In this document: one piece after another, positions 24,447 to 61,136 of the stretch
How positions within the stretch are numbered: position 1 is the first letter of the stretch
How the letters are laid out: every line of letters starts with the position of its first letter
Source: a virus
Taxonomy: Duplodnaviria; Heunggongvirae; Uroviricota; Caudoviricetes
Strand: one strand, 5' to 3'
IMG/VR virus record: IMGVR_UViG_3300031994_000001
Span: 119,799 to 183,798 of that record
DNA length: 64,000 nucleotides
Translations under genes and position numbers: made by a program
Notes under the pieces: model-generated
Seen by the model: only the letters and a program-made list of their open reading frames with translations
Databases searched by the model: none
Told to the model about the DNA's origin: nothing

Positions 24447-24447
24447 A

Positions 24448-26694: not shown

Positions 26695-26720
26695 TTTGGA
26701 TTTATTATATGATATTGTAG
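26695..26720 (+). promoter_or_regulatory. conserved promoter-like motif, copy 3 (TTTGGATTTATTATATGATATTGTAG)
   Basis: 70 nt upstream of the gp32-like gene. Confidence 0.4.
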
Positions 26721-33706: not shown

Positions 33707-33739
33707 TTTTCTTTATTTTTTTGGAATTATCTCTTTTAT

Positions 33740-34792
33740 TTATATGTTACTCATCGCGGCGGCATCTGCTATTGATATGTCCAACACACCCTTCAGTTCC
33801 GTTCCGTGCAAAACATCGCCTCCGCAGTACAGATTCATAAGAGGCAGGCATTCTTTTACAAATTTCAACGTCTTGTTGATTATGTCTTGCGGGGTCTTGT
33901 ATGCGACTTTTCTCCAAGGTTTGCCCCCGCATTCTTTCAGCAAGTCTTCCGCGCTGCGCATAGCCATATATTTAAGGTTTGGCTTGTATGTGTTGTTTCC
34001 GCTTCTGTCAAACGGGGAAAGATACATAAGCGGTTTCGCAACACCGTCTATCTTACCGCTATACAAATCGAATCGGAATGCGTTGGTGCTGTGGGTTTCT
34101 ATTTTTTTGCCATTTATGCCTATAAAAAGGCTCACTGGTGATATTTTATTCCCGTTTCTTGTCATCTTCAATATCACATTGGCATCATTTATTTCGTTTT
34201 TAATGCCATTGATGATTTCGTCTTTGTAGTAGGTTTTCCAAGTGCTGTTCTGATTGTATGTTTTGTCAAGTTCGCTTTTTATTCTGTCGTTGAACATTCC
34301 CTTTTCGTCACATACGAGTTCGTTTATGGGTTTCAAGTTTTTCTCGTTAAACACTTTTTTTATTATGCCGAACATATTGTCGCCCATAAACAATTTGTGG
34401 TTTTCGCCAATATGTATTGACGGAATTGTCTCTGAAGGAGAGTACAATCCCATATATACAACGTAAAACTCTGTGGAGTATTCCATTTTTTTATAGAACC
34501 CGATTGTTCCATATATCCGAACAATTAAAGATGTGCTGCTTCCTGCTGTGACGGTTTTTATTTCAATGCCATATTGGTTTCTCTCTATGTTTTTTTGTAT
34601 CTTCGCATAGGCATCTGTGATGAAATCCGCATATTCCGCTGTATTGTGGTTAAACTCACTTTTTTTAAACCATTTATCCTCATCTTCTTTTGCGGACAAC
34701 GATACACTGTTAAGCCTGCCTTTTGAAACGGGTTGGATGTTTAGTTTCTCTGATACAGAGTTAAACTCATTAAAATTGAGTATCTTTGTCAT
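33740..34792 (-). CDS. leader-family protein 7 (MTKILNFNEFNSVSEKLNIQPVSKGRL...), 350 aa, C-domain unknown
   Basis: Leader motif; no other domain recognised. Confidence 0.55.
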   Translation of the reverse strand: MTKILNFNEFNSVSEKLNIQPVSKGRLNSVSLSAKEDEDKWFKKSEFNHNTAEYADFITDAYAKIQKNIERNQYGIEIKTVTAGSSTSLIVRIYGTIGFYKKMEYSTEFYVVYMGLYSPSETIPSIHIGENHKLFMGDNMFGIIKKVFNEKNLKPINELVCDEKGMFNDRIKSELDKTYNQNSTWKTYYKDEIINGIKNEINDANVILKMTRNGNKISPVSLFIGINGKKIETHSTNAFRFDLYSGKIDGVAKPLMYLSPFDRSGNNTYKPNLKYMAMRSAEDLLKECGGKPWRKVAYKTPQDIINKTLKFVKECLPLMNLYCGGDVLHGTELKGVLDISIADAAAMSNI

Positions 34793-34865
34793 TTGTGTAT
34801 TTGTTTTATGTAAATTTTTCGTTTTTCCTAAACGGAATCAAATTATTTGGAGTTCAGTATCTTTG

Positions 34866-35321
34866 TCATTTCTTATTGGTACTGTATTTGTTGAAACTTC
34901 TTACACTTTTTATTTGGATTATTTTGCCGCTGTCGTTTATTGCGAAAAGATAGTGTCGTTTATTGAATATATCTGAAATATTCGGTTCTTTGAAAAATCG
35001 CAACGCATCATATTTCAGATTTATTGAAAACACCACATCTTCTTGGGATGATTTATCTGCCAATCTTTTCTTTAATTCCTCAAGCGAATGATACAATCCA
35101 ATAAAACTGTTGTTATCATTATCATATTGTGGTAGTGGCTTTTCGCTAACGACATAATCACCGCTCCAAATTTCACTATTTTCCGCATTTGGAGACCCGT
35201 GGTCTTGATATAGATATAATTTCACCATTTCATCAACGGCTTGTTTCAACCTATCCTTTGAAACGGGTTGTATATCAAGTTTCTCGGAAATAAATTCCTT
35301 TGCGTTTAATATTTTTGTCAT
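34866..35321 (-). CDS. leader-family protein 8 (MTKILNAKEFISEKLDIQPVSKDRL...), 151 aa
   Basis: Leader motif. Confidence 0.55.
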   Translation of the reverse strand: MTKILNAKEFISEKLDIQPVSKDRLKQAVDEMVKLYLYQDHGSPNAENSEIWSGDYVVSEKPLPQYDNDNNSFIGLYHSLEELKKRLADKSSQEDVVFSINLKYDALRFFKEPNISDIFNKRHYLFAINDSGKIIQIKSVRSFNKYSTNKK

Positions 35322-35326
35322 ATTGT

Positions 35327-37534
35327 TTATTGTTTTTCAAATCCGTTGCTTTTGAGGAATTTTTTGATTGTAGGCAGTTCATACAACTGCTCTGGACCGA
35401 TGTTGTACTTAATCAATTCCTCCCTTGCGCCGTCATCCATTTTGCGTATTTCCTCATATCCCGTGAGGTATGAACTGTCAAGCGAAGTCGCGTAGTTCTC
35501 GTTCCAAAACACGATACGCATAGCCCTAATGATTCCAATGAGGGCATCGTCCATTTTGGATTCGGTCATCTTCATAATCTTTTTCACGAGTTCGTCAGTT
35601 GACATAGTGAACAAGTGCTTCAGTATGATGATTTTCTTCGAGATGTAGAACATAATGTTCGGCTTCGGCTTCGGCGATTTGTCAAGGGAATTGTAGATTG
35701 CCATACCCTCGTCATACTTGCCCGCGCCGTGGAGACCGTATAGAAACAGATTCAACCCCGTCTTTATTCCGCTGTCCTTTCTCGCAACGTGGGTGTTCAC
35801 TTCGTGGCGTTTGAGTGAGTCAATGTCAACCTTGCTGAAGTTGCTGTGGGCGTTTATGAGGAATTTCTTGTATGTCTTGACGCTCATTCTCGGAACGAGG
35901 TTGTCATCAAGTTCGACTTCCCAATTATACCCTTTTTTCTTTATTTCTTCCTCCATCTCCTTTTTAGCCTCTTTCGGGGTTATGGTGCGCTTGTAGTCTT
36001 TGTCTTTTTTCTCCAGGTCGTGTATGTCGTCCACGGGGTTTTCCTTGATGTATTTCAATGCCTTGTGATAAAGGTAGTTTGACGGACGGTAGAAGTTCTT
36101 TGGAAGTTTGCGCTTGCCGTTCACGTAGTCGTGTATGTATTCTATGTTCTTTTTCACGATTTCGAGTTTGTCAAGGTAGAATTTTGTGAGGTAGCAGGCT
36201 TGGAACTCGCGGAAATCGTCAATGAGTGATTCCACGTCATCCATAAACGTCTTGTATTGTTTTTCGTCACTCCAAGCGGATTTTTCGTATTCGATTTTAT
36301 CGAATGTCAAGTCGTAGTCATCGTCCTCGCGCAAGTGCTTTTTATACCTGCTTATGAGTTCGCTCATATTGGTTATGTTTTGGAAGTGGGATTTTTCCTT
36401 GTGGTATTTGTCCATTATCTTCCCGTAACGCTTGTCGTATTCGATAAGTTTCTCCTTGTTCTTGTCGGATAATTTTATTTTCTCGTCTATGTAGTCGTTC
36501 ACTGATTCAAGCACGAACACGTTACCGTATTCACTGCGAACCAAGTCACGCTGCTGAAGTTCGTTGTCTGTGAGGTCGTCAAACGGAACAACCCTAACGT
36601 TTCTGTTGTTGTCGTCATAGCAGATATAGTTGAGGTCGGTCTTTATGTCGGTTATGCCGATAACACCGCTCGGACTTTTCACTACATTGAACGAAAGCAT
36701 ACCTCCGACACGCTTTGCGGTCTCGTTACCTTTTTGGCGGGCGACACAGTTTCCAAGTGAATATGCGCAGAGAGTCCTGCCTCTGTCGCCAACCCATCTG
36801 ACGGGTTGCACAACGTGCGGGTGTGTTCCGATGATTATGTTCACTCCGAGTTGGGAGAGATATTCGGATATGTGACGCTGCTCCTTGTTGATGTCGCCGA
36901 GCATATATTCAGTACCCCAATGCAGGGAGACTATCACGACATCGGCGTTCTTGCGGGCGTACATAATATCCCTTACACCGAACTGCTCGTCCCAAATGTT
37001 GATGCCGCTTACCCGTTTCTTGCGCATAGTGTTCACCCGTGTGGTGTATGAAACGAAAGCGAACACGATTCCGTTCTTTGTAAAAAACGATACCCTTGAT
37101 TCGGGGCTGTTTTCATCAAGACCCGAACACACAGCCCCGCTTGAATACCAAAACTTTCTGTTCTGTTCCAAGCCGTCCAATCCGTTGTCGATGACGTGGT
37201 TGTTGGCAAGTGAGATGAGGTTGAACCCTGCGTCAAGTATGGCATCGCCGAAATTGGTGTCCGCAGCGAACAGAGCAGTACCCATTTCACCCAATTCTCC
37301 GCCGTGCTTGCTGTCGCATATAGGGGTTTCGGCGTTGCAGTATCTTATGTCGTATTGCTGTATCTTCGGTTTTAGTGCGCTGAACACATCGCTGTAATCA
37401 TACCCGTTTTCCGCAGCGTCATTCTGTATGTCCGTATGGGCGAGCATATCGCCGACAGCCACGAAACTGACTATGGCGTTTTCGGAGTTTGCTGATTCAT
37501 TTACGAATTTGTCGTATGTCTTAATGTAGTTCAT
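35327..37534 (-). CDS. CapA/PGA_cap-like metallophosphoesterase domain (N-terminal ~380 aa) fused to a ~350-aa C-terminal domain of unknown function; N-terminus MNYIKTYDKFVNES weakly resembles the leader
   Basis: AVGDMLAHTDI...ADTNFGDAILDAGFNLISLANNHVIDNG...VSLHWGTEYMLGDINKEQR...IIGTHPHVVQP matches CapA-family motifs (SLHWGTEY, GHHPHV). Confidence 0.6.
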   Translation of the reverse strand: MNYIKTYDKFVNESANSENAIVSFVAVGDMLAHTDIQNDAAENGYDYSDVFSALKPKIQQYDIRYCNAETPICDSKHGGELGEMGTALFAADTNFGDAILDAGFNLISLANNHVIDNGLDGLEQNRKFWYSSGAVCSGLDENSPESRVSFFTKNGIVFAFVSYTTRVNTMRKKRVSGINIWDEQFGVRDIMYARKNADVVIVSLHWGTEYMLGDINKEQRHISEYLSQLGVNIIIGTHPHVVQPVRWVGDRGRTLCAYSLGNCVARQKGNETAKRVGGMLSFNVVKSPSGVIGITDIKTDLNYICYDDNNRNVRVVPFDDLTDNELQQRDLVRSEYGNVFVLESVNDYIDEKIKLSDKNKEKLIEYDKRYGKIMDKYHKEKSHFQNITNMSELISRYKKHLREDDDYDLTFDKIEYEKSAWSDEKQYKTFMDDVESLIDDFREFQACYLTKFYLDKLEIVKKNIEYIHDYVNGKRKLPKNFYRPSNYLYHKALKYIKENPVDDIHDLEKKDKDYKRTITPKEAKKEMEEEIKKKGYNWEVELDDNLVPRMSVKTYKKFLINAHSNFSKVDIDSLKRHEVNTHVARKDSGIKTGLNLFLYGLHGAGKYDEGMAIYNSLDKSPKPKPNIMFYISKKIIILKHLFTMSTDELVKKIMKMTESKMDDALIGIIRAMRIVFWNENYATSLDSSYLTGYEEIRKMDDGAREELIKYNIGPEQLYELPTIKKFLKSNGFEKQ

Positions 37535-45352: not shown

Positions 45353-47836
45353 ATGAGACAAGACTACTATCATAACGGCCCGTTTGACATAAGTGAGTCG
45401 GGATTTACCGATGGCGGTAAAGAAGTAATTGAAATTGTTGACTACGGTTTGCCCGATGACGGAGAGGGTTATGTGGAAGGTGTGCAGGGCGCACAAGGAA
45501 TCCAAGGTGTGCAGGGTACTAATGGGGGCGGCGGCGGAGGCGGCGGCTCACAAGGCGCACAAGGTATTCAAGGAATCCAAGGAAAGCAGGGTATGCAAGG
45601 TGTTCAAGGTATTAAAGGTTCTGACGGCATACAAGGTACGGCAGGTTCTAACGGCGAACAAGGCGTTCAAGGTGTAGCAGGTGCTGATGGCGAACAAGGT
45701 ATTAAAGGTGCTGACGGCATACAAGGTACGGCAGGTTCTAACGGCGAACAAGGCGTTCAAGGTGTAGCAGGTGCTGATGGAATCCAAGGCGCACAAGGTA
45801 CAGCAGGTTCTGAAGGTATCCAAGGTGCAACGGGTACTGACGGTATCCAAGGTACAGCAGGTGCTGATGGTTTGCAAGGTGCAACGGGTGCTGATGGTTT
45901 GCAAGGTGCTGACGGTATTCAAGGTGCAACGGGTGCTGATGGTTTGCAAGGTGCTGACGGTATTCAAGGTACAGCAGGTGCTGATGGTTTGCAAGGTGCT
46001 GACGGTATTCAAGGTGCGGACGGCGCACAAGGTGTTCAAGGTATAATGGGTGCTGACGGAATCCAAGGTGCTGACGGTATTCAAGGAACTGACGGTTTCC
46101 AAGGTGCGGACGGCGCACAAGGTGTTCAAGGTATAATGGGTGCTGACGGAATCCAAGGTGCTGACGGCGTGCAGGGTGTACAAGGTGTGCAGGGTGCGCA
46201 GGCTGTGTATCAAGACTTTCAACTTGTCACCGCATTGAACTCTGATGTCAGTATGAGTGATTTGTTCGACAATGAATCATACAACAATGCAAGCATAATG
46301 TTTGATATTGACGCTTCAATAGACATAACGGTTGATGTTATGGCAAGCAATGATAACTACTTCATTCTTTCAAACACATCAAACAATCCCATAAATGTCA
46401 CATTCGACTATTCCAATTTAAGCAACATTCGCTTTATTGGAGATGAAGGATATTCGTCAGATGACAGTATCATTATACCTATGCAATCACAGTCTTTTAT
46501 ACAGTTTACATTCAGAAAAATGGGAAGCAATATTATAGTGTACTCTGTGAAACCGATTGCTTCACACGTGACACTTGTTGACGAATCCGATTTGAGCAGA
46601 ACGGCAGTTGCACTTGTTTACAAGAATGCGTCAAGCAACGAACTCAAATACCTTGACATTGACACTATCGGAGGAAACTCGGTTGACATTCAAGGATGGG
46701 TTATGCAGGACTATGTTAGGTTCACGAGAGGAAAGAACGGCATACCCGTTGTTATTCACAAGAATGCTCTCAACAAGTATATGTACGCTGAATACAACAG
46801 ATACAAACTCTACTGCGATACAACGGCAGCGGGCGGATTCCATTGGAAAGTCACAATCAACAATGCAGCCAAGCAGGGCGATGTCACTTGGGCTGTTGGC
46901 GATACATTAGATAGTATTGTCGCGCAAATGACGGGTGTTAATACATATTTGGTATTCTCACACGACAGCGGTGATGATTTTATCAAAGTTAGAAAAGGCG
47001 GAACTTCAAATTCTGTGTTCACACTTACCAATAACACGGGTGCTACCCTCGTTGACTTGTCGCTCTATACAAGAGTGAACGGTGTTCAGCAAGCGGAAAC
47101 CCATAGGGATTGGCAGGCACAAAGTATCGCAACATTGTTCCCGAACTCTAACTTTCCTGCCCCTACAAGCAAGTATTACTGTGAAAACACTTACGATATG
47201 TCACAGCGTACTGGTGCCAATTATCCAAAGTACACTTCATATTGGGAGAACAACAGTTCGGGCAACGCTTGGTATCCCGAAGATTCAACATCAAAGAGAA
47301 TGAACAGAACCAAGTTTGCGTCACTTGACGGTGACGGAAACGCAGAGCATCAAGCGTTATTCGACAAATATAATGGTTCTTGGGACAGATATATGGCTGC
47401 TGCTATGAACAAAAAGGATGACGTAAATACTGACGGTATAGACTATACGTCATACGACAACGGTGATGTATTTACTGCATTTGCCGTGTCTGTTGAGACT
47501 ATGGACTTTGACGGAAGTTACTTGCACGCATATCCCGCAGCATACAATACTTCATTGCGCACAGACTCCGTTTTGGGCGCATACCAAATGCCTACAGTAC
47601 ACGAGGTCGCTGTGTTTATGGACGATGAGACTATGCGCAAGATTAACACGGCATTCGGCTATTTGAGCGATGTAGCCCTTCTTATTGATACAACATCATA
47701 TTGGGCTGCTGGCGAATACAGCGAACAATACGCTTGGTTCTACAACGGTCAGCGTGGCGAAATGGGTTACAACGAAAGATACCAAAACGCCAACGCAGGC
47801 AGGTTTGTGGCATACATAAGACCGCAGAACCCGTAA
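45353..47836 (+). CDS. collagen-like (Gly-X-Gln/Asp) repeat protein with a large C-terminal domain, putative tail fibre / receptor-binding protein
   Basis: N-terminus MRQDYYHNGPFDISESGFTDGG resembles the N-terminus of the 62794-63603 protein. GGGGGGGG, then about 80 Gly-X-Y triplets with internal ~90-nt tandem duplications, then a ~540-aa non-repetitive domain. Confidence 0.65.
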   Translation: MRQDYYHNGPFDISESGFTDGGKEVIEIVDYGLPDDGEGYVEGVQGAQGIQGVQGTNGGGGGGGGSQGAQGIQGIQGKQGMQGVQGIKGSDGIQGTAGSNGEQGVQGVAGADGEQGIKGADGIQGTAGSNGEQGVQGVAGADGIQGAQGTAGSEGIQGATGTDGIQGTAGADGLQGATGADGLQGADGIQGATGADGLQGADGIQGTAGADGLQGADGIQGADGAQGVQGIMGADGIQGADGIQGTDGFQGADGAQGVQGIMGADGIQGADGVQGVQGVQGAQAVYQDFQLVTALNSDVSMSDLFDNESYNNASIMFDIDASIDITVDVMASNDNYFILSNTSNNPINVTFDYSNLSNIRFIGDEGYSSDDSIIIPMQSQSFIQFTFRKMGSNIIVYSVKPIASHVTLVDESDLSRTAVALVYKNASSNELKYLDIDTIGGNSVDIQGWVMQDYVRFTRGKNGIPVVIHKNALNKYMYAEYNRYKLYCDTTAAGGFHWKVTINNAAKQGDVTWAVGDTLDSIVAQMTGVNTYLVFSHDSGDDFIKVRKGGTSNSVFTLTNNTGATLVDLSLYTRVNGVQQAETHRDWQAQSIATLFPNSNFPAPTSKYYCENTYDMSQRTGANYPKYTSYWENNSSGNAWYPEDSTSKRMNRTKFASLDGDGNAEHQALFDKYNGSWDRYMAAAMNKKDDVNTDGIDYTSYDNGDVFTAFAVSVETMDFDGSYLHAYPAAYNTSLRTDSVLGAYQMPTVHEVAVFMDDETMRKINTAFGYLSDVALLIDTTSYWAAGEYSEQYAWFYNGQRGEMGYNERYQNANAGRFVAYIRPQNP

Positions 47837-47857
47837 CATACTATTCTACGATAACGA

Positions 47858-47886
47858 AAGCCCGATAAAATGTCGGGCTTTTTTAT
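47858..47886 (+). terminator. rho-independent terminator
   Basis: AAGCCCGA-taaaatg-TCGGGCTT followed by T6. Confidence 0.7.
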
Positions 47887-47948
47887 TTTGCGGGCGTTTA
47901 TTTTTTCCGAAATTTTATTATATATTATAGTGAATAAGTATTTGTAAT

Positions 47949-48689
47949 ATGGAACTGTATAACGGCGATTGCATAGATATAATGAAAGACATACCAAGCG
48001 GCAGCGTGGATATGGTGCTGTGCGATTTGCCATACGGAACTACACAGAACAAATGGGATGCCGTCATTCCGTTTGACTTGCTGTGGGAGCAGTACAACCG
48101 TGTGGCAAAGGTATCAGCAGCCATTGTTCTGTTCGCGCAGGGTGTGTTCTATGCAGACCTTGTTCACTCCAACAGAAATAATTTTCGATACGACCTTGTG
48201 TGGGATAAAATGCTTAAAGGCGGGTTCTTGAACGCAAAGGTTATGCCGATGCGCATACACGAGCAGATTGCTGTGTTTTATAGAAAGAAACCCGTTTACA
48301 ACCCGCAGAAGACAAAAGGCAAACCGAACCACACGAAAGGGACGGCTATATTCACGAAAGGCGAGACCAACAACAACTATGGTAAATACAACCCCGTTGA
48401 AACTGACGTGAATGACGATATGAAATATCCGAGTACCATACTGTCGTTCCAAAAACCTCATCCGAGTGTTTCGGTTCATCCCACACAGAAGCCCGTTGAG
48501 TTGCTTGAATATCTCATAAGGACATTCACAAACGAGGGTGACACGGTGTTGGACAATACAATGGGTAGCGGCAGCACGGGTGTAGCCTGCGTGAATACGA
48601 ACCGAAATTTTATAGGCATAGAGAAAGATACTAATTATTTTGAAATAGCGAAAAAGAGAATTGAGGAATCAAATAAAAAATTGTTCTGA
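47949..48689 (+). CDS. DNA methyltransferase 1 (N6-adenine/N4-cytosine, beta-class, PF01555-like)
   Basis: Motif IV variant CDLPYGTT near the N-terminus (D-L-P-Y in place of D-P-P-Y); HPTQKPVELLEYLIRTFTNEGDTVLDNTMGSGSTGVAC (motif I) near the C-terminus. Confidence 0.8.
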   Translation: MELYNGDCIDIMKDIPSGSVDMVLCDLPYGTTQNKWDAVIPFDLLWEQYNRVAKVSAAIVLFAQGVFYADLVHSNRNNFRYDLVWDKMLKGGFLNAKVMPMRIHEQIAVFYRKKPVYNPQKTKGKPNHTKGTAIFTKGETNNNYGKYNPVETDVNDDMKYPSTILSFQKPHPSVSVHPTQKPVELLEYLIRTFTNEGDTVLDNTMGSGSTGVACVNTNRNFIGIEKDTNYFEIAKKRIEESNKKLF

Positions 48690-49433
48690 ATGAACGACAT
48701 CAGACTATATAACGGGGATTGTCTTGAAGTTATGGCGGGTTTGGAAGAGCATAGCGTTGACTGCGTTATATGCGACCTTCCATACGGCATAACGAGTAAC
48801 AAGTGGGATATTGTCATACCCTTTGACAAATTGTGGGAATCGTATGACAGAGTGTGCAAGGAAAACGCTATGATATGTTTGTTCGGCGGGCAACCGTTTT
48901 CGTCAATGCTTGTTATGTCGAACTTGAAGATGTTTCGTCACGAGTGGATTTGGATTAAGAACAGAGGAAGCAACTTTGCGAATACGGTGAGAGAGCCTAT
49001 GAAAGAACACGAAAGCATATTGTGTTTCTCGAAAGGCAAATGGACTTACAACAAGCAGATGCAGGAGCGCACTGGCGGGGGTGCTGACCGTGTTAAGTAC
49101 AGCATATCGTTTGACACTTCATCATCGAACTACCGTGATTTTGACAAAAAGGAAAACCTTGTGCTTACGGAGGAACGTGTGCTGTCATCATACCAAAAGT
49201 TCAACACGGAAGTTGGGTTGCACCCCACACAGAAACCAGTAGCCTTGCTTGAATATCTGATACGGACATACACTAATGAGGGCGACACTGTAATGGACAA
49301 TACGATGGGCAGCGGCTCTACGGGTGTAGCCTGCGCCAACACGGACAGAAATTTTATAGGAATAGAACTTGATAAAAAATATTTTGACATTGCTGAAAGT
49401 AGGATAAAATATGCAAATAAAAAACTTTTCTGA
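48690..49433 (+). CDS. DNA methyltransferase 2 (paralog)
   Basis: CDLPYGITSNKWD ... HPTQKPVALLEYLIRTYTNEGDTVMDNTMGSGSTGVAC; the start abuts the previous stop. Confidence 0.8.
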   Translation: MNDIRLYNGDCLEVMAGLEEHSVDCVICDLPYGITSNKWDIVIPFDKLWESYDRVCKENAMICLFGGQPFSSMLVMSNLKMFRHEWIWIKNRGSNFANTVREPMKEHESILCFSKGKWTYNKQMQERTGGGADRVKYSISFDTSSSNYRDFDKKENLVLTEERVLSSYQKFNTEVGLHPTQKPVALLEYLIRTYTNEGDTVMDNTMGSGSTGVACANTDRNFIGIELDKKYFDIAESRIKYANKKLF

Positions 49434-49434
49434 A

Positions 49435-50385
49435 ATGGACGGGGTGAAACTATACAACGGGGACTGCCTCGAAGTTATGAACGATATACCCGATAACAGC
49501 GTTAATTTAATACTTTGTGACCTTCCATACGGCACAATGGGTATAAAATGGGACGTTACGATACCGTTTGACAAACTGTGGGAACACTACAATCGTGTAC
49601 TGAAACCAAACGGTACGGTTCTGCTTTTCGGAAGCGAGCCGTTTGCTTCTATGGTTCGTTACAGCAATCCGTCTATGTACAAATACGATTGGGTTTGGGA
49701 GAAAAACAACTGCGGCAATTTCCAATTGGTGAACAAGCAGCCTATGAAGATACACGAGACAATATCCGTGTTTTATGAGATTCCGAGACATTACGCCTTT
49801 TCGGAAATAATCGTTTCCAATATGAAGCGTCTTGGCTTGGGTTACAACGAGGTCAGTATGCTGTTCCCGTCACGAAACGGTTTACAGACGGGTTGGCTGT
49901 CCAACAAGATAAGCGGAAAGCAGTTGCCTACAAGAGAGCAATGGAAGCGTTTGTGTAATTTGTTCGGTATTGAAGATGAATATGACAAACTCGCAGTCAA
50001 GAACACTATAACCTATAATATGGTTCTGAAAGACGTTGAGAGAACATTGTCAAACAAAGGCAAAGGCGGCAGGCTCGGACATCTCGGCTCGCAGAACAAG
50101 CGCAGCGAGTATAAGCAGACAAAGAGCGGTTATCCAAAAAGCATATTGAAGTTCAACCGAGAGACGGGATTTCACCCTACGCAGAAGCCCGTTTCGCTGC
50201 TTGAATTTTTGGTTAAAACCCACAGCAACGAGGGTGACGTTGTTCTTGACAACTGTATGGGCAGCGGTTCTACGGGTGTAGCCTGCGTGAATACGGGCAG
50301 GAACTTTGTCGGCATTGAAATTGAGAAAAAGTATTTCGAGATTGCCGAAGAACGCATTTTGGATTCCGAAAAGAAACTGTTTTAG
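49435..50385 (+). CDS. DNA methyltransferase 3 (paralog with an ~80-aa insertion)
   Basis: CDLPYGTMGIKWD ... HPTQKPVSLLEFLVKTHSNEGDVVLDNCMGSGSTGVAC; ATG 1 nt after the previous stop. Confidence 0.8.
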   Translation: MDGVKLYNGDCLEVMNDIPDNSVNLILCDLPYGTMGIKWDVTIPFDKLWEHYNRVLKPNGTVLLFGSEPFASMVRYSNPSMYKYDWVWEKNNCGNFQLVNKQPMKIHETISVFYEIPRHYAFSEIIVSNMKRLGLGYNEVSMLFPSRNGLQTGWLSNKISGKQLPTREQWKRLCNLFGIEDEYDKLAVKNTITYNMVLKDVERTLSNKGKGGRLGHLGSQNKRSEYKQTKSGYPKSILKFNRETGFHPTQKPVSLLEFLVKTHSNEGDVVLDNCMGSGSTGVACVNTGRNFVGIEIEKKYFEIAEERILDSEKKLF

Positions 50386-50413
50386 TTGTGTTAAAAAACA
50401 AAAAATTATTCTG

Positions 50414-51349
50414 ATGGTAAGAAACATTATAATTGATGGCGAATTGCCAATAATATGTTCCGTCCCCGCCATTGAGGGTGTCGCTTATATGCTCAAGGAG
50501 CATTTTAACGACAAACCGAACAGACAGTTCACGGTGAACACAAGCATAGAGGATTACGATGAGTTGGAGAAAAACAGCGAACTCACGGACTGTATGGTCT
50601 ATTACAATATGGAGCATAAGTGCAAGATTATGTGGAACGGGCAGTTGCCGTTCTGCGGTTCGTATTGGACGGAGAAAAACAACGAAATGTTCGCCAAGTA
50701 TGATGAGATATGGGATTTCCAAATTGAGAACTACGAGTATTTCAAGTACCACGGTCTCGGAGACAAATTCAGATTCAGACCGCTACGGTACACAAGTTTC
50801 TATGAATGGTACAGAACAAGCGAGAAACCGCAGTTCGACATTCAGTTGGAGTGTGTTATTGATTCCGATATTAGGGCGGTTGCATTGCGTAATCTGACCG
50901 ATATTCCTATGGCTGTTGACGATAACGGAAATTATGTGATTACGGGTGAGCGTATGCGAATCAACCTAACAAACACAATGGAAAGCGGCGTGAAACTGTT
51001 GGCAAAGAACAACTGCCGCTATGGTATTGACATTCCGAGATATGACGTGCTTTGCACGATAAACACGTTCCGAATCTATGAGTATGTCTGTATGAACAAG
51101 CCCGTTATTGTATGGGATAAATACGGCATCACATCAAAGCGTTATTTCAACGACTTGTGCATTTACACAAAAGACATTACCGCGTACAACATAAACAACA
51201 TAATTCAGAACGAGCCGAAGTCCGATGTTGCCGACACATTCAAGCAGATGACATTCAATGATTCCGACTATAACGAATACATACTTGACATAGTGCGCGA
51301 CCATAAAGATAGGACGGGTGAGACTATTCCCGATTCAGTATTGCAATGA
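50414..51349 (+). CDS. hypothetical protein (311 aa) embedded in the methyltransferase array
   Basis: ORF from the ATG 28 nt after the MTase-3 stop; its stop overlaps the MTase-4 ATG (ATGA). No confident motif. Confidence 0.5.
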   Translation: MVRNIIIDGELPIICSVPAIEGVAYMLKEHFNDKPNRQFTVNTSIEDYDELEKNSELTDCMVYYNMEHKCKIMWNGQLPFCGSYWTEKNNEMFAKYDEIWDFQIENYEYFKYHGLGDKFRFRPLRYTSFYEWYRTSEKPQFDIQLECVIDSDIRAVALRNLTDIPMAVDDNGNYVITGERMRINLTNTMESGVKLLAKNNCRYGIDIPRYDVLCTINTFRIYEYVCMNKPVIVWDKYGITSKRYFNDLCIYTKDITAYNINNIIQNEPKSDVADTFKQMTFNDSDYNEYILDIVRDHKDRTGETIPDSVLQ

Positions 51350-52161
51350 TAGACGATACAAACATAGAACTTTTGCACGGTGATTGCCTTGAACTTATGA
51401 AAGGCATACCCGACAACAGCATAGACCTCGTGCTGTGCGATTTGCCATACGGCACGACCGCCTGCGCTTGGGATGCCGTCATACCATTCGAGCCGCTTTG
51501 GGAACAGTACAAAAGGGTTACAAAAGACAATTCACCGATTGTGCTGTTCAGCACACAGCCGTTTACAACAATGCTCATCTACTCAAACATAAAATGGTTC
51601 AGAGAGGAAATCATTTGGCTTAAAAACCGTGGCGGCAGCGGTCTCCATTCCGACAGACGGCATATCAAGACTCACGAGAATATCGTTGTTTTTTCCAAAG
51701 GTTCGTACACGTTCAACCCGCAGAAGTGGGCAGTGTGTGACAAAAAGTTCCTCGTACACAGAAAGGTGTTTGACTACGGCTATGCGAAAAACAACATATA
51801 CGGAAATATTCGCGATGTGAAGAAACCCGATGACGGAACTCGGAATCCGATAAGCGTTGTGTCATACGAAGTGCCTCATACCCCGTCAAAAGGCAGGCAT
51901 TATGACAGCAATGTTGACTTGCGATACCATCCGACACAGAAACCGATAGAACTGCTCGAATACCTTATAAAGACATATAGCAATGAGGGAGGCGTTGTTC
52001 TTGACAACACTATGGGTTGCGGCAGCACGGGTGCAGCCTGCGTGAACACAAACCGCAAATTCATAGGCATTGAGATTGAGAAAGAGTATTTTGACATTGC
52101 GGAGAAACGCATAAAAGAAGCCAAGCAAAAACAGCAAACTGAAGCAAAGACATTGTTCTGA
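51346..52161 (+). CDS. DNA methyltransferase 4 (paralog)
   Basis: CDLPYGTTACAWD ... HPTQKPIELLEYLIKTYSNEGGVVLDNTMGCGSTGAAC. Confidence 0.8.
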   Translation: MIDDTNIELLHGDCLELMKGIPDNSIDLVLCDLPYGTTACAWDAVIPFEPLWEQYKRVTKDNSPIVLFSTQPFTTMLIYSNIKWFREEIIWLKNRGGSGLHSDRRHIKTHENIVVFSKGSYTFNPQKWAVCDKKFLVHRKVFDYGYAKNNIYGNIRDVKKPDDGTRNPISVVSYEVPHTPSKGRHYDSNVDLRYHPTQKPIELLEYLIKTYSNEGGVVLDNTMGCGSTGAACVNTNRKFIGIEIEKEYFDIAEKRIKEAKQKQQTEAKTLF

Positions 52162-52949
52162 TGGAAGTGAACAAGATATACAACCAAGACTGCATTGATG
52201 GTATGCGGTTTATTGGCGACAAGTCAATAGACTGCATAATTTGTGATTTGCCATACGGAACGACTGCCTGCAAATGGGATTCCGTCATTCCGATAGAATC
52301 GCTATGGGAACAGTATGAGAGGATTATAACCGATGTCGGTGCTATTGTGCTGTTCGGTCAAGAGCCGTTTTCCTCCTTTTTGAGAATGAGCAACACTAAA
52401 CTCTACCGTTACGATTGGATATGGGAAAAGCAGAGACCATCCAACTTCCAACTTATGAATTACCAATGCGGCAGGATTCACGAAACGATAAGTGTTTTCA
52501 GCAAAAGCAACGCCTGCTATTCAAACGGCAAGCCTACTATGACATACTATCCGCAGACGACTTCAAGGGAAAAGGCGAGGGTTAGTACAAAGAACACAGT
52601 TTACAGCAACAACATTCTGCACAACTACAATAAGACTGCAACTGACTGTGACGAGAAAAAGACCTATAACGTGAAGCAGCCGACTTCCATCATCAAGTAC
52701 AATACGGTTGAGGGTGGCAAGATACACCCGACACAGAAGCCCGTTGAACTTGTGCAGTACCTTGTGCGGACTTACACGAAAGAGGGCGACCTTGTGTTGG
52801 ACAACTGTATGGGCAGCGGCACGACCGCAGTAGCCTGCATTCGGGAAAACCGCAGGTATATAGGGTTCGAAACGGATTCGGAATACTATGAAAAGTCGTT
52901 GGAACGTATAAAAGGCGAGATTGAGGAAAAGAGAAAACAACTTTTTTGA
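52161..52949 (+). CDS. DNA methyltransferase 5 (paralog)
   Basis: CDLPYGTTACKWD ... HPTQKPVELVQYLVRTYTKEGDLVLDNCMGSGTTAVAC; its ATG overlaps the previous stop (TGATG). Confidence 0.8.
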   Translation: MEVNKIYNQDCIDGMRFIGDKSIDCIICDLPYGTTACKWDSVIPIESLWEQYERIITDVGAIVLFGQEPFSSFLRMSNTKLYRYDWIWEKQRPSNFQLMNYQCGRIHETISVFSKSNACYSNGKPTMTYYPQTTSREKARVSTKNTVYSNNILHNYNKTATDCDEKKTYNVKQPTSIIKYNTVEGGKIHPTQKPVELVQYLVRTYTKEGDLVLDNCMGSGTTAVACIRENRRYIGFETDSEYYEKSLERIKGEIEEKRKQLF

Positions 52950-52985
52950 TACTGGAGTATAAATATACATATATAAAAGTTATAT

Positions 52986-53936: not shown

Positions 53937-54458
53937 ATGGCTGATACCAATTTACATTTGTACGATATAGAGTTGAGAATCGCCCGCTCACGGGATTTCG
54001 ACTATACGAAGAAACTTGTTGTGTTCAACGTGATAGGGCAGGGCGGCGTGTTACCGCTATGGCACGAGTGTGATGTTCTTGTTTGTACAAAGGTAGGCTA
54101 CCTAACTGAAATTGAGATAAAACGCTCATACGCTGATTTTCTCAATGACTTCAAGAAAGAACACAACCATAAGTCGGATTACATAAAATATTTTTATTAT
54201 TGCGTTCCCGCAAAAATTAAGGACAAAGTTCTGTCGTTTCTATCGTCATACGAGAACCAAAACGATTGGCGTGCTATGGCGGGTGTAATAACCTATTGGG
54301 ACGATAGCAAGTGGATAGACATTGTGAAAGCACCTACACAAAACAAGGACGTACTGAAACTGTCGCTTGAACAGATGCTATATCTCGCACGGCTTGGAAG
54401 TATGCGGGTGCTTACGCTCAAAAAGAAAATACTTGATTTGAAAAAACAACGGATATGA
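53937..54458 (+). CDS. hypothetical protein; possible PD-(D/E)xK / VRR-NUC-like nuclease motif
   Basis: WHECDVLVCTKVGYLTEIEIKRS gives a D...(12 residues)...E-I-E-I-K arrangement resembling D-x(n)-E-x-K. Confidence 0.3.
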   Translation: MADTNLHLYDIELRIARSRDFDYTKKLVVFNVIGQGGVLPLWHECDVLVCTKVGYLTEIEIKRSYADFLNDFKKEHNHKSDYIKYFYYCVPAKIKDKVLSFLSSYENQNDWRAMAGVITYWDDSKWIDIVKAPTQNKDVLKLSLEQMLYLARLGSMRVLTLKKKILDLKKQRI

Positions 54459-54676
54459 ATGACAAAGAACTTGACATTGATTGGAACAATGTTCTCATTG
54501 AGGCGAGCATAGCGGCTATGCAAGGAATACAAGAAAGCGGAAAATTCGGATTGGCTGCGGATGTTATGCCCGAAAAACTTGCGGAGATTTCTGTCAAGAT
54601 AGCAAAATGTCTCGTAACCGAACTGAAAGCGGAAATTGAATCAAAAAGCGAGCGGCAATTACCGCTCGCTTTTTGA
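54455..54676 (+). CDS. hypothetical protein (73 aa)
   Basis: ORF overlapping the previous stop; a terminator hairpin overlaps its 3' end. Confidence 0.4.
   Translation: MNDKELDIDWNNVLIEASIAAMQGIQESGKFGLAADVMPEKLAEISVKIAKCLVTELKAEIESKSERQLPLAF
54646..54675 (+). terminator. rho-independent terminator
   Basis: GCGAGCGG-caatta-CCGCTCGC followed by T5. Confidence 0.65.
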
Positions 54677-56831: not shown

Positions 56832-57185
56832 TTATTTGTTATAAAAGTACACTGCCTCGTACCAATCGCCGCCGTCATCGGAACTTGTTTGCGTGACGTG
56901 GTGCAGTTTGTAGCCCAATTCGGTTATGAGTTTTTTAGAGAATCCGTGTTCGTGCTTCCAATTACCCTCTATCTGTACGCAGACATACCGTGGGTCTTGC
57001 GGCGTTTCTATCCAAACTTCCGCGCTGACACCATTGTTCTCAAGGGTCTTTTGAATCCTATCAACGTCTTTGTCGCTAATCATTCTGCGTTCAATTTCGT
57101 TTTGGATATTGTCCAACCGTTCTTTCGACACGGGTTGGATGTCAAGTTTTTCCTTGATGAATTTGTCTGCTTTGAGAATTTCCAT
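56832..57185 (-). CDS. leader-family protein 12 (MEILKADKFIKEKLDIQPVSKERL...), 117 aa
   Basis: Leader motif. Confidence 0.55.
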   Translation of the reverse strand: MEILKADKFIKEKLDIQPVSKERLDNIQNEIERRMISDKDVDRIQKTLENNGVSAEVWIETPQDPRYVCVQIEGNWKHEHGFSKKLITELGYKLHHVTQTSSDDGGDWYEAVYFYNK

Positions 57186-58092: not shown

Positions 58093-58521
58093 TTATAATT
58101 CGATAATCAAACGGGTGTTCTTGTTACGCAAAACCCTTGCGTTTTCAGTAAGTTTGTAAACATCACACAGAACATCCAACGTTGTCAGATTAAGGAAATT
58201 GTCGCCTTTTTCAAAAGGAATGGCGGATTGCAGATAGACCTGCTTTTCTATCGGTATGCCAAGTTTTTGAAACCTGCTTCTTGTGTACGCGATGTTTTTC
58301 AGAGTGTTGTTCACCCTGCGTAACTCGCTTTCGGTCATTTTGACCTTTATTGTCTGTGTGTACACAGTGCCTTGTTTATCCCATACTTTGTTGTAGTTGA
58401 CAGACAAAATATTCAGTCTCGGCTCGTTGATTTCGTTTTTCAGTTTGCCAAGTCTGTCCTTTGTTACGGGCTTTATGTCCAATTTTTCGGAGACAAACTC
58501 CTCTATGTTCAATACTTTCAT
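58093..58521 (-). CDS. leader-family protein 13 (MKVLNIEEFVSEKLDIKPVTKDRL...), 142 aa
   Basis: Leader motif. Confidence 0.55.
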   Translation of the reverse strand: MKVLNIEEFVSEKLDIKPVTKDRLGKLKNEINEPRLNILSVNYNKVWDKQGTVYTQTIKVKMTESELRRVNNTLKNIAYTRSRFQKLGIPIEKQVYLQSAIPFEKGDNFLNLTTLDVLCDVYKLTENARVLRNKNTRLIIEL

Positions 58522-58525
58522 AGCC

Positions 58526-58960
58526 TTATTCTATATATTTTACTGTGTCAAAATGGCAGGTGTCTTTCGCCACTTCGCATCTTTGTTGCAATTCAATGGA
58601 ATCCTTTTTGTCATAGCAGTAAATGTAAAGTTTCTTGCCGACAATCTTGTTTCCGAATTTTTTCATATTTTTGTCTATGGCTTTGTAATCGTTTTTCTCG
58701 TGCATAATGCTGTCATAGTCATATATCGCTTTCCAAAAATCGTTGCTGTATGTTGTGTCCTCAAATTCTTTCACATTTTTCATATTCGTGAAAGTGAACT
58801 CGTATTTTGGACACATCATAAAATCGGTGTCATCGTCTTTGAAAGTCGGAAGTGAAGCAAGGATTCTGCCTTGACTGTCCAACACGCTTTCAAACGGTGT
58901 TTTTGTCGCAACAGTCTTTGCGCTTTCTGCTATGAATTGTTCAAATTTGTATATTTCCAT
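58526..58960 (-). CDS. leader-variant protein (MEIYKFEQFIAESAK...), 144 aa
   Basis: N-terminus resembles both the family leader (MKILKFEQYINEKL) and the T4 capsid-targeting sequence (MKTYQEFIAE) but lacks the NIKPVSKDRL part. Confidence 0.5.
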   Translation of the reverse strand: MEIYKFEQFIAESAKTVATKTPFESVLDSQGRILASLPTFKDDDTDFMMCPKYEFTFTNMKNVKEFEDTTYSNDFWKAIYDYDSIMHEKNDYKAIDKNMKKFGNKIVGKKLYIYCYDKKDSIELQQRCEVAKDTCHFDTVKYIE

Positions 58961-58967
58961 AATTTTG

Positions 58968-59609
58968 TTATTTTTTAATTTTTCCTTCAATCCAATTCTG
59001 TTTATTTATCGGTAGAACAAGGTTTGGATTATTACCGCAATATAAATTATCGCCGATTTTCTGCGGTGCGCCTTCAATGGTTGTAAGTTTGTTATTACGG
59101 CAATAAAAACCACCTCCGACTTCTTGCGGTGCGCCTTTAAGGGTTGTCAAATAGTTGTATCTGCAAATAAAATCATCACCGACTTCCTTTGGTGCGCCTT
59201 CAAGGGTTGTCAGTTTATTATTACTGCAATTAAAATCACCACCTACTTTCTGCGGTGCGCCTTTAAGGGTTTTCAGTTTATTACCACTGCAATCAAAATC
59301 CCCGCCGACTTTCTGCGGTGCGCCTTCAAGGGTTATCAGTTTGTTATTAAAGCAGCCAAAATACCCTTTAACGTGTCCGAATCTTATTTTAAGTTTACCG
59401 TCAAGCACTATGTCGTTTGAAATCCTAACGTCCCCGTCACAATCATAACTTCTTGTTGATGGATTCCATACGAGATTGTTGACTTCTATGAATAATTTCG
59501 TTTTATCATCAACTTCGGGTTCTTTACACAATTCAGCAAGTCTATCTTTTGAAACGGGCTTAATGTTAAGTTTCTCGTTTATATATTGTTCGAACTTGAG
59601 TATTTTCAT
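58968..59609 (-). CDS. leader-family protein 15 with about 7 LRR-type repeats
   Basis: MKILKFEQYINEKLNIKPVSKDRL..., then GAPQKVGGDFDCSGNKLKTLKGAPQKVGGDFNCSNNKLTTLEGAPKEVGDDFICRYNYLTTLKGAPQEVGGGFYC. Confidence 0.6.
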   Translation of the reverse strand: MKILKFEQYINEKLNIKPVSKDRLAELCKEPEVDDKTKLFIEVNNLVWNPSTRSYDCDGDVRISNDIVLDGKLKIRFGHVKGYFGCFNNKLITLEGAPQKVGGDFDCSGNKLKTLKGAPQKVGGDFNCSNNKLTTLEGAPKEVGDDFICRYNYLTTLKGAPQEVGGGFYCRNNKLTTIEGAPQKIGDNLYCGNNPNLVLPINKQNWIEGKIKK

Positions 59610-59616
59610 AACATAT

Positions 59617-60321
59617 TTATTGTTTATCACAAGTAAGAATGCCTTGTATCCAATTTGGTTTTTCTTTTGGCATTGTTAAATTTGGATTGTTTTTGCATAC
59701 AAAATGAAAAACGCCTTTTATTACACAATCTATCGAATGCAACATATTATCACTGCAATCAAAATTGCCTCCTACATATTTCGGTGCGCCTTCAAGCGTT
59801 GCAAGATTGTTATGGCTGCAATTAAAATTCCCGCCCACTTCTTTCGGTGCGCCCTTTAGCGTTTTTAATTTGTTTTGGCTGCAATCAAACACATACGGTA
59901 TTTCTTTGGGCGCACCTTCAAGGGTTTTCAACATATTCTTACTACAAATAAAAGAGTCATCAATTTCTTGTGGGGCAAAGCAAAGGGATGTCAGTTCGTT
60001 GTCCGAACAATCAAAGAAACCCATTACTTTTAACGGTGCGCCTTCAAGGGATTTCAGATTGTTATTGGAACAGTTGAAGTTTCCATTTATAACTCCGAAT
60101 TTTATCGGGAATGAATCCAACCCTATGTCGTTTATATAAACATTTCCGTGGCAATCATAGCGCATTGTTTGCTTATTGAACACAAGTTCGTGACGTTTGA
60201 TGAAATTTTTTCTGTATTCATTTAAGTATAGTTCACCGAAACGATTATCAAGTCTGTCTTTTCTGACGGGCTTAATGTTAAGTTTCTCGTTTATGTATTG
60301 TTCTGTTTTAAGTATTTCCAT
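59617..60321 (-). CDS. leader-family protein 16 with LRR-type repeats
   Basis: MEILKTEQYINEKLNIKPVRKDRL..., then repeats. Confidence 0.6.
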   Translation of the reverse strand: MEILKTEQYINEKLNIKPVRKDRLDNRFGELYLNEYRKNFIKRHELVFNKQTMRYDCHGNVYINDIGLDSFPIKFGVINGNFNCSNNNLKSLEGAPLKVMGFFDCSDNELTSLCFAPQEIDDSFICSKNMLKTLEGAPKEIPYVFDCSQNKLKTLKGAPKEVGGNFNCSHNNLATLEGAPKYVGGNFDCSDNMLHSIDCVIKGVFHFVCKNNPNLTMPKEKPNWIQGILTCDKQ

Positions 60322-60323
60322 AG

Positions 60324-61136
60324 TTAAAATATTATATATTTGTCTTTTACCCAATTTGGTTTTTCTCTTGGAGGATTCAGTTTCGGGTTGTTATTGCAAT
60401 AAAAATCACCAACTCTTTGTGGTGCGCCGTAAAATGATTCAAGTTCATTGTTTGAACAATCAAGTTTGTATTTTACAACTTTTGGCGAACCCACCAATGA
60501 TTTCAGTTTGTTGTGCGATATGTCTATTTTGTCGCAATTCGGAATCCCGACAAATGACTCTATGTTATTGTCTTTGCAATTTATAAAACTGGTGCTGATA
60601 CCCGTTCCGATTTTTTGCGGTGCGCCTTCAAATGTTTTTAGTTTGTTGTGTTCACAATGCAAATCCCCACCGATTTCTTTCGGCGCGCCTTTAAGGGTTT
60701 CAAGTTCATTGTTATTACACCAAAGACCCCATTTGATTTCCTGCGGTGCGCCTTTTAGTGTTTTTAGTTTGTTGTAACCACAATAAAAAGAATCTCCTAC
60801 TTTTTGTGGTGCGCCCTCAAGTGATGTAAGTTCGTTATATCTGCAATCAAAATAGCCACCGACTTCCTGCGGTGCGCCTTTTAGTGATGTCAGTTTGTTG
60901 CCCGCACAGATAAAATTACCATTGACCACACCAAATCTAACGGGAAATTCAGTAAGCCCCTTTTCTATCAAATTAACATTTCCTTTACAATCATACAACA
61001 TAGTTTCTTTGTTATAAACAAGGTTATACTCTTTTATGAATGTTTTCATTTTTGTGGTTTGAATTAACCTGCTTTTTGAAACGGGCTTAATGTTAAGTTT
61101 CTCGTTTATATATTGTTTCGAGTTCAGTATTTCCAT
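60324..61136 (-). CDS. leader-family protein 17 with about 9 LRR-type repeats
   Basis: MEILNSKQYINEKLNIKPVSKSRL..., then repeats. Confidence 0.6.
   Translation of the reverse strand: MEILNSKQYINEKLNIKPVSKSRLIQTTKMKTFIKEYNLVYNKETMLYDCKGNVNLIEKGLTEFPVRFGVVNGNFICAGNKLTSLKGAPQEVGGYFDCRYNELTSLEGAPQKVGDSFYCGYNKLKTLKGAPQEIKWGLWCNNNELETLKGAPKEIGGDLHCEHNKLKTFEGAPQKIGTGISTSFINCKDNNIESFVGIPNCDKIDISHNKLKSLVGSPKVVKYKLDCSNNELESFYGAPQRVGDFYCNNNPKLNPPREKPNWVKDKYIIF

Follow-up and report, generated by a model that had tools for sequence, protein, structure and literature searches.

Orphan methyltransferases of phages are a textbook anti-restriction device and are nearly always encoded as single genes. Dam of T4 and Dmt of P1 are orphan anti-restriction phage methyltransferases, and the Bacillus phages SPR, phi3T, rho11s and SPbeta possess multispecific cytosine-C5 methyltransferases. 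The locus described here lies in a 64,000-nucleotide stretch of phage DNA (the window), in which positions 47949-52949 of the plus strand hold six densely packed open reading frames (ORFs), comprising five DNA methyltransferases (M1-M5) and one other gene (X). Like T4 Dam, P1 Dmt and homologues from cultured phages, the enzymes of this array are encoded by the phage without a detected cognate nuclease and presumably protect its DNA. On the basis of sequence comparison we read the array, with a probability of roughly 0.7, as a fast-turnover set of cassettes that would serve anti-restriction from a non-late operon of a T4-like jumbo phage.

The window is a portion of a 248,464-bp contig (JGI 3300028805 Ga0247608_10000043), the size of which marks a jumbo phage. 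T4-like features are represented by a gp32-like single-stranded DNA (ssDNA)-binding protein and a gp13-like protein, together with a gp44-like clamp loader and a UvsW-like helicase just past the window end, and collagen-like fibres are encoded upstream of the array. No near-identical DNA was found among GenBank phages, so that no cultured relative is available, and the comparison set consisted of three related contigs that share the synteny around the array, designated L001 (130 kb), L087 (75 kb) and L177 (63 kb).

Array layout and enzyme family

All five methyltransferases are of the beta-class PF01555 type, as an earlier note on this DNA had proposed. Each is encoded by an intact plus-strand ORF with a full-length match to PF01555 N6_N4_Mtase (101.5-117.5 bits against a gathering cut-off of 26.7 bits, E 8e-29 to 1e-33, profile positions 1-219 or further of 221) and each also matches phrog_67. 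Alignment of the five proteins revealed 59 invariant columns, among them C-D-L-P-Y-G, HPTQKP and D-N-x-M-G-x-G-x-T, all of which are intact in every copy. The proteins display the circular permutation of the beta class, with motif IV before the recognition region and the S-adenosylmethionine (SAM)-binding motif I near the C-terminus: D-L-P-Y is located at residues 26-37 and is followed by a variable stretch of 64-133 aa, and HPTQKP and the SAM-binding motif fall within the last 70 residues. Of the motif strings quoted in the earlier note, CDLPYG and HPTQKP occur in all five, whereas the remainder had been slightly idealised, M3 reading CDLPYGTM, M2 VMDN and M4 MGCGST. Since every invariant residue is kept, the five window enzymes look active.

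The canonical motif IV, (D/S)-P-P-(Y/F), was found in none of the five, all of which carry D-L-P-Y. This had been regarded as a variant peculiar to these genes, but it is the norm of a large clade, being present in 116 of the 120 closest database homologues of M2 and 117 of the 120 closest to M5 (233/240 together), in 66 of 89 family copies from bacterial and archaeal genomes of many phyla, and in five homologues from cultured phages whose hosts are Pseudomonas, E. coli, Salmonella, Lactobacillus and Staphylococcus. By these sequence criteria M1-M5 belong to a distinct D-L-P-Y clade within PF01555. A special or inactivating mutation was ruled out as the origin of D-L-P-Y, as it is the clade norm, cultured phages included.

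The five methyltransferases do not form the uninterrupted row that had been supposed, because the 311-aa non-methyltransferase ORF X separates M3 from M4. Abutting or overlapping stop and start codons were observed at four of the five array junctions: 0 nt separate the stop of M1 from the start of M2 (TGAATG), M2 and M3 overlap by 23 nt, X and M4 overlap in ATGA, and M4 and M5 overlap by 1 nt in TGATG. The M3 start is most likely the ATG at 49411, because this codon is kept in L001 (and L087), while the second ATG is ATA in L001. At the M3/X junction a 28-nt gap contains the 3' end of a relic methyltransferase gene, the stop codon of which overlaps the start codon of X, again as TGATG. The spacing of 0-1 nt or overlap stated in the earlier note thus holds for M1/M2 and for the TGATG of M4/M5, whereas the ATGA it mentioned belongs to X/M4 and the M3/X gap departs from it. 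Shine-Dalgarno-like motifs precede only 2 of 72 genes, against a background of 10%. Their near-absence points to a host without Shine-Dalgarno initiation and makes translational coupling by stop/start overlap in the array plausible. Initiation without a Shine-Dalgarno motif suggests Bacteroidota, and a Bacteroidota-like host is indicated.

The view of the array as one operon behind a terminator was upheld, as it is a tightly packed same-strand unit preceded by a hairpin, confirmed at 47856-47882 (47858 in the earlier note). This hairpin would end the upstream late gene, which encodes a collagen-like fibre (45353-47836), and would set the 5' boundary of the array. The promoter-like box TTATTATATATTATAG upstream of M1 is kept upstream of the L001 and L177 arrays despite differing flanks. 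The pattern has five matches in the window where 1.1 are expected, and a resembling box is found at 26702-26720, upstream of the gp32-like ssDNA-binding gene. We infer that TTATTATATATTATAG is an early or middle promoter. For the T4-type late-promoter box TATAAATA the window has 22 occurrences where 2.5 are expected, most of them directly upstream of genes in matching orientation, which suggests that the phage probably uses T4-style late transcription. One such box at 45327 precedes the collagen-like fibre gene, none was found upstream of M1, and the next one follows right after M5; L087 and L177 likewise have a TATAAATA box behind their final methyltransferase gene. From this succession of terminator, promoter box, M1-M2-M3-X-M4-M5 and late promoter we infer a non-late transcription unit. 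A scan for sigma-70 promoters returned fewer sites than in shuffled sequence and was not used.

Table 1. Positions of the array genes, their boundary elements and other repeated features (window coordinates unless a contig is named)
Feature	Position	Strand	Description
M1	47949-48689	+	246 aa methyltransferase; recognition region 66 aa; tail NKKLF; PF01555 E 3.9e-30
M2	48690-49433	+	247 aa methyltransferase; recognition region 64 aa; tail NKKLF; PF01555 E 1.1e-33
M3	49411-50385	+	324 aa methyltransferase; long recognition region, 133 aa; tail EKKLF; PF01555 E 8.3e-29
Relic methyltransferase 3' end	50388-50414	+	GTG TTA AAA AAC AAA AAA TTA TTC TGA = VLKNKKLF*
X	50414-51349	+	311 aa; GT-B glycosyltransferase fold (model)
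M4	51346-52161	+	271 aa methyltransferase; recognition region 78 aa; tail AKTLF after a longer linker; PF01555 E 1.5e-32
M5	52161-52949	+	262 aa; most divergent methyltransferase; recognition region 75 aa; tail RKQLF; PF01555 E 8.1e-31
Intrinsic-terminator-like hairpin	47856-47882	+	12-pair stem, 5 G-C pairs, 3-nt loop, T-rich tail
Promoter-like box TTATTATATATTATAG	47915-47930	+	precedes M1 by 19 nt; distinct from the T4-type late box
T4-type late-promoter box TATAAATA	52958-52965	+	array 3' boundary; upstream of a small ORF at 52986
TATAAATA late boxes, examples	3365, 26291, 33737, 37646, 45327, 52958, 56092, 62721
Shared-N-terminus genes	21816-22613, 24162-25245, 32852-37534, 56832-57185, 58093-61136	mostly -
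Shared-N-terminus genes outside the window	L171 759-1766, L177 1333-1971

Recognition regions, cassette turnover and alternative readings

Pairwise identity between the five paralogs was computed as 38-52%, where about 40-55% had been estimated before. Its distribution along the proteins, in a three-part split of the alignment, is 45-53% in the N-terminal core, 53-80% in the C-terminal SAM-binding core and 16-27% in the recognition region. In beta-class enzymes the target-recognition domain sits between the catalytic and SAM-binding cores. Over the four related contigs, recognition regions of orthologues are 56-100% identical, against 11-35% between types. The earlier proposal of different target specificities agrees well with this comparison, which supports five different specificities for M1-M5. 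More than 100 database clusters match M2 at 65-99% identity (over 100 at 65-75%, the best at 99%), and M5 has database relatives at up to 87%. A recent tandem duplication within the array was ruled out, as M2 and M5 are closer to outside relatives and orthologue types are common to several contigs.

No nuclease-family match was obtained among the array neighbours in Pfam and PHROG searches, which a divergent nuclease could escape. The neighbours are a collagen-like fibre gene, X and small ORFs, and the adjacent cognate endonuclease that defines a type II restriction-modification system was not found among them. According to the proposed mechanism, five orphan methyltransferases with the same catalytic and SAM-binding core, each equipped with an unrelated recognition region, would methylate the phage DNA at up to five motifs during replication, and methylation at several motifs would block several host restriction systems at once.

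Comparison with the relatives revealed extensive differences at the same slot. L001 carries four methyltransferases in the order M1-b-M2-M3-X, with an extra type designated b and without M4 and M5; L087 carries five, M1-b-M2-(TnpB)-M3-X-M4, and lacks M5; and L177 carries eight consecutive family genes without X, consisting of M1-, b-, M5- and M3-like types, two new types, and the fusion and the internally deleted M4-type copy described below. At least 10 methyltransferase types circulate at this slot in the window and the three relatives, and the varying array size (4, 5, 5 and 8 genes) fits an arms race and the anti-restriction role suggested earlier. Orthologues of M1 are 99% (L087; nucleotide level, N-terminal core), 80% (L177_1) and 76% (L001_a) identical, those of M3 90% (L001_d) and 68% (L177_8), and that of M5 87% (L177_7). 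M2 of L087 is chimeric: its body is 94-99% identical to M2 of the window at the nucleotide level, up to '...NFIGIE', and its last 21 codons are of M1 type (95% nucleotide identity to M1, 64% to M2). Likewise, M4 of L087 has 94% nucleotide identity to its window counterpart in the 5' part and 72-74% in the 3' part. Degenerate copies are as well represented in the relatives, namely L177_2 (2793-4277), in which read-through joins a D-L-P-Y module to a D-P-P-Y module within one 494-aa protein; L177_6 (6641-7195), an M4-type copy with an internal deletion of about 87 core residues; and L001_c (8219-8962), with substitutions at two otherwise invariant positions (HHTQKP, VLGN). The relic before X, by its codons the last part of a lost or donor methyltransferase gene, is identical in L087, and L001 has an unrelated 86-nt spacer in its place. 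From these comparisons the array is a hypervariable cassette locus in which whole genes are gained and lost. Gene 3' ends are swapped by recombination within the conserved C-terminal module, as the chimeric genes of L087 directly show, and related phages therefore carry differing sets of 4-8 genes drawn from the at least 10 types.

Mobile and retroelement-like genes were also observed around the slot. The TnpB gene of L087 (7742-8965) is of IS605 type, lies exactly at the M2/M3 junction and is bordered by the 16-nt inverted repeat AATTATCCCTTTTAGT. Another IS605-type TnpB, with OrfB_IS605 and a Cas12f1-like TNB domain, is encoded outside the array at 22694-23950 (minus strand) of the window and differs from that of L087; in this lineage of phages, TnpB elements seem to be mobile. 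Directly upstream of the array, L087 (2615-3898) and L001 (4241-5656) have an RVT_1 reverse transcriptase gene, which is possibly part of a diversity-generating retroelement. In the window a collagen-like fibre gene occupies this position, and the array flank is itself a plasticity zone.

For 80 IMG/VR loci, a single family copy was counted in 70, two copies in 10 and three copies in 2; for 79 genome loci with at least one copy, the corresponding counts were 70, 8 and 1. GenBank phages gave 459 matching places in 425 records. A literature search for multi-methyltransferase phage arrays found no precedent, which is absence of evidence only.

With respect to chemistry, the earlier note had named the N6-adenine/N4-cytosine family, within which the adenine-N6 type is favoured. 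The best solved relatives of a profile made from the five genes are all N6-adenine enzymes (H. pylori M1.HpyAVI/DpnA, CcrM, M.RsrI and M.MboIIA, E ~1e-25), with E-values some 10 orders of magnitude better than those of the solved N4-cytosine enzymes (6e-14 to 5e-9, from 8s9m at 6e-14 to M.PvuII at 5e-9). The nearest NCBIfam models are adenine-specific as well, although their equivalog cut-offs are far from reached (CcrM NF050803, 75-80 bits against 830; PRK11524 NF008572, 55-88 bits against 292). M1-M5 are thus probably adenine-N6 enzymes. That some or all of them methylate cytosine N4 instead might be argued from the fact that PF01555 holds both chemistries, that solved N4-cytosine enzymes are detectable relatives and that the altered motif IV D-L-P-Y is without a characterised example; however, motif IV has Asp in all five, as in N6-adenine enzymes, and N4-cytosine enzymes of the family typically carry Ser there, so that we consider this unlikely. 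The proposal of a mostly redundant or decaying array, with several copies as inactive remnants of selfish mobile cassettes of little benefit to the phage, draws on the three degenerate copies in relatives (the deletion in L177_6, the substitutions in L001_c and the read-through fusion L177_2) and on the relic gene end within the window. It is quite unlikely in our view, since the five window genes are full length with every invariant residue, orthologue types are kept across four contigs, and array position and promoter context are kept too. Finally, methylation could be a self mark against a phage nuclease that degrades unmodified host DNA, or could regulate phage processes, for instance packaging or the timing of transcription. 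T4-like phages degrade host DNA, and roughly 1 kb past the array a conserved ORF of 173 aa (53937-54458) shows a D...E-x-K pattern and a weak 'DNA repair protein' PHROG match (E 4e-4), but no nuclease family was confidently detected near the array, a regulatory mark is hard to square with five different specificities, and the quick gain and loss of cassettes better fits host-driven diversifying selection. Both versions of this idea are therefore very unlikely.

Several points nevertheless weigh against reading the array as an anti-restriction cassette set. The functional statements, i.e., those on activity, N6 chemistry, motifs, timing, coupling, role and host, all derive from sequence, and the assignment of N6 over N4 rests only on the Asp of motif IV and the ranking of solved relatives. 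Whether characterised enzymes carry D-L-P-Y had been proposed as a check, and none was found, neither a solved enzyme among the structure matches nor a characterised one in the literature search. An intact recognition region is no proof of a distinct motif, and two types could share overlapping sites. The promoter call relies on a consensus box and its conservation in few relatives, the analysis covered the 64-kb window and about 10 kb beyond it of a 248-kb genome, and X, which does not adjoin methyltransferases in distant T4-like phages, may have nothing to do with DNA.

The C-terminal Leu-Phe tail

All 22 array enzymes end in x-L-F, i.e., the five of the window (NKKLF, NKKLF, EKKLF, AKTLF and RKQLF) and 17 in L001, L087 and L177, and a polar linker, 7-17 residues long, separates the tail from the last core helix. 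AlphaFold2 modelling of M2 (pLDDT 82.6, core above 90, recognition region 56-62) placed the end of the last helix at residue 244 and KLF in coil. No LF end was found among about 67 other ORFs of the window or among 16 ORFs in the 10 kb past it; other L-F-tailed proteins of the same phage, looked for as a sign of a shared docking motif, were not found. Over all loci collected, 32 of 108 family ORFs end in LF against 13 of 1857 other ORFs. Outside this lineage, LF ends occur in 60 of 396 unique homologue tails, and Gln at position -5 is present in 20 of these 60 against 28 of the 336 others (Fisher p 1.4e-6, the tails not being phylogenetically independent). These homologue tails include QLDLF, QLTLF, QLRLF, QPSLF, QMTLF and QGELF; the exact form QL.LF is present in 6 of 311 unique tails, and Q..LF at the C-terminus in 0 of 1857 non-methyltransferase ORFs. 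KQLTLF is the tail of each of the three tandem methyltransferases in the IMG/VR locus L065, even though two belong to a D-P-P-Y subfamily that is only 27% identical to the third. At the nucleotide level, the final 21 nt of these three genes are almost the same, as are the stop codons and some 15 nt behind them.

The pentapeptide Q-L-(S/D)-L-F at the C-terminus is the consensus for binding to the bacterial beta clamp (PMC9690074), and the motif of T4 gp43 that binds the clamp gp45 is a C-terminal LDFLF (PMC6212786). The array enzymes resemble both in an extreme C-terminal Leu-Phe, which follows a flexible polar linker, and the five window tails differ in keeping only the L-F. We tentatively suggest that the x-L-F and Q-x-x-L-F tails might bind a sliding clamp, the enzymes riding the host beta clamp or a gp45-like clamp of the phage. 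Tethered to the clamp, the enzymes would methylate newly synthesised phage DNA at the replication fork, ahead of the host nucleases, and paralogs would compete for the same docking site, tail uniformity being kept by selection and gene conversion. Protein-level selection is favoured by the synonymous variation of the Leu and Phe codons and by the retention of the tail at uncoupled array ends. However, the window tails lack Gln and match QL[SD]LF only in L4-F5, the linker is short, and the cultured-phage homologues have no tail. A literature search yielded no paper linking a prokaryotic DNA methyltransferase to a clamp-binding motif, again absence of evidence only.

An alternative that we hold with equal hesitation considers x-L-F a by-product of the cassette junction and not a protein motif. 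The A-rich and then T-rich gene end (AAA AAA TTG TTC TGA ATG) would be a translation-initiation leader without Shine-Dalgarno motif for the gene that comes next, a short homology patch for recombination or both, and gene conversion would homogenise the tails within an array. The scarcity of Shine-Dalgarno-like motifs (2/72 genes), with A-rich AAAAAATT-type leaders before many unrelated genes, is compatible with this explanation, as are the overlapping stop and start codons at most junctions, the relic upstream of X and the 3' ends demonstrably exchanged between array members. The near-identical gene ends of L065, shared even between subfamilies with 27% identity, point the same way, and since there the tail, the stop and the downstream DNA form one near-identical repeat, gene conversion at junctions explains at least the uniformity within an array. 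On the other hand, Leu and Phe are invariant over synonymous codons (TTG, CTT, CTG and TTA; TTC and TTT), the tail is kept at array ends that have no coupled gene (M5, L001_d and L087_M4), and L-F is always at the extreme C-terminus although the linker varies from 7 to 17 aa. In addition, 60 of 396 unique tails have LF ends in unrelated phages whose DNA differs, with an enrichment of Gln that is specific to position -5. If clamp binding holds true, replication-coupled methylation, so far known for eukaryotic DNMT1, where proliferating cell nuclear antigen (PCNA) couples methylation to replication, would have a prokaryotic and viral counterpart and extend to viruses of bacteria, and it would explain how the phage wins the race of methylation against restriction.

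Two further proteins with Leu-Phe-like elements were recorded. A 73-aa ORF about 1.5 kb downstream of the array (54455-54676, plus strand) has no family match and ends in ...SERQLPLAF; it resembles the hexapeptide clamp-binding form QLxLxF/L and could be a small clamp-binding protein, which is suggestive only. About 1 kb past the window end (L171 8378-8686), a 102-aa protein encoded beside the gp44-like clamp loader, in the position of gp62, ends in ...KKKRKRLFGRKK and contains KRKRLFG, a basic L-F stretch resembling the methyltransferase tails and likewise only suggestive.

Protein X, further genes and comparison with known systems

X has no match in Pfam, PHROG or NCBIfam. Its family is small, with 26 clusters in a database of 5.8 billion sequences, and an IMG/VR scan for X found nothing. 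The AlphaFold2 model (pLDDT 91.5, pTM 0.90) has two Rossmann-like domains with GT-B topology, and by this model X is a GT-B protein. Its structural neighbours include the T4 alpha- and beta-glucosyltransferases (AGT and BGT) and the enzyme of phage HY126, which are not the closest ones. The DNA of HY126 carries arabinosylated 5-hydroxycytosine (PMC13326640). In the window, L087 and L001 the gene comes after M3. Its neighbours in more distant T4-like phages are a sugar epimerase and a giant protein that contains a glycoside hydrolase, or else packaging genes, and these other contexts ruled out X as a generally methyltransferase-associated gene. No gene of an acceptor-base pathway, i.e., for 5-hydroxymethylcytosine (hmC), 5-hydroxycytosine (hoC) or 5-hydroxymethyluracil (hmU), was seen within the 64-kb window. 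X is predicted to be an enzyme of glycosyltransferase fold co-expressed with the methyltransferases, and a role on DNA is a candidate function.

A number of other genes of the window were recorded. The 173-aa ORF at 53937-54458 (plus strand) is kept downstream of the array in the relatives (72-73% nucleotide identity); it contains an ECDVLV...EIEIK pattern, matches phrog_2776 and may be a candidate PD-(D/E)xK nuclease. A very divergent adenylosuccinate-synthetase-like gene (18786-19901, plus strand) bears a PurZ-type PHROG label, and it scores 20.4 bits with PurZ NF038379 against a cut-off of 300 and is also far from the PurA cut-offs. A 2-aminoadenine (Z) genome was ruled out as supported by this gene, as the PurZ and PurA cut-offs failed and PurA structures matched weakly. 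Near it lies a gene similar to GMP reductase and IMP dehydrogenase (IMPDH; 14315-15364, plus strand), and the two could convert guanine to adenine nucleotides. At least 14 genes encoding proteins of 94-735 aa have in common the N-terminal motif M-(K/E)-I-L-x-x-x-(E/Q)-(Y/F)-I-x-E; one has a PGA_cap domain and others have weak matches to leucine-rich repeats (LRR). They look like a multigene family, the leader of which is possibly a targeting or packaging signal. Further ORFs encode a protein with an N-terminal HTH_17 (excisionase-like) domain and a C-terminal RNA_pol_A_CTD domain (29452-30261, plus strand; E 5e-15), which may mimic or recruit a transcription factor; an SPFH/flotillin-like protein with Band_7 and Flot domains (31241-32776); a 735-aa protein with PGA_cap and MATCAP-like domains (35327-37534); and a GIY-YIG/T5orf172 homing-endonuclease-like product (13571-13882).

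The array slot provides, on a single scaffold, a natural library of 10 or more recognition modules, of use for deriving rules from sequence to specificity and for engineering. It reads out the restriction pressure on an uncultured jumbo phage that probably infects Bacteroidota, and it offers a system for studying the evolution of cassette arrays without an integrase.

In comparison with known systems, X can be set beside the T4 alpha- and beta-glucosyltransferases and the HY126 glycosyltransferase, which are GT-B phage DNA glycosyltransferases. The solved enzymes M.RsrI, M.MboIIA, CcrM and M1.HpyAVI have the same order of elements as the array methyltransferases and a similar size of about 250 aa, but the solved PF01555 enzymes have D-P-P-Y and no C-terminal x-L-F, whereas the array enzymes combine D-L-P-Y with x-L-F. 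The cultured phages HU1, IMM-001, S102, Silenus and O1-69 have CDLPYGTT in common with the array, and their enzymes are 48-65% identical to M2; these homologues are single copies without an L-F tail (five inspected), unlike the five paralogs in one operon of the window. The multispecific enzymes of the Bacillus phages resemble the array in that several recognition modules on a conserved catalytic framework protect one phage. They differ in placing several recognition domains in one C5-cytosine polypeptide, whereas the array has one complete beta-class enzyme per recognition region, to which layout the two-module fusion of L177 is a natural exception. Thus, the kind of device, the orphan methyltransferase of phages, is known, and what is new is a promoter-defined slot with 4-8 complete enzymes, an embedded GT-B enzyme and a uniform L-F tail.

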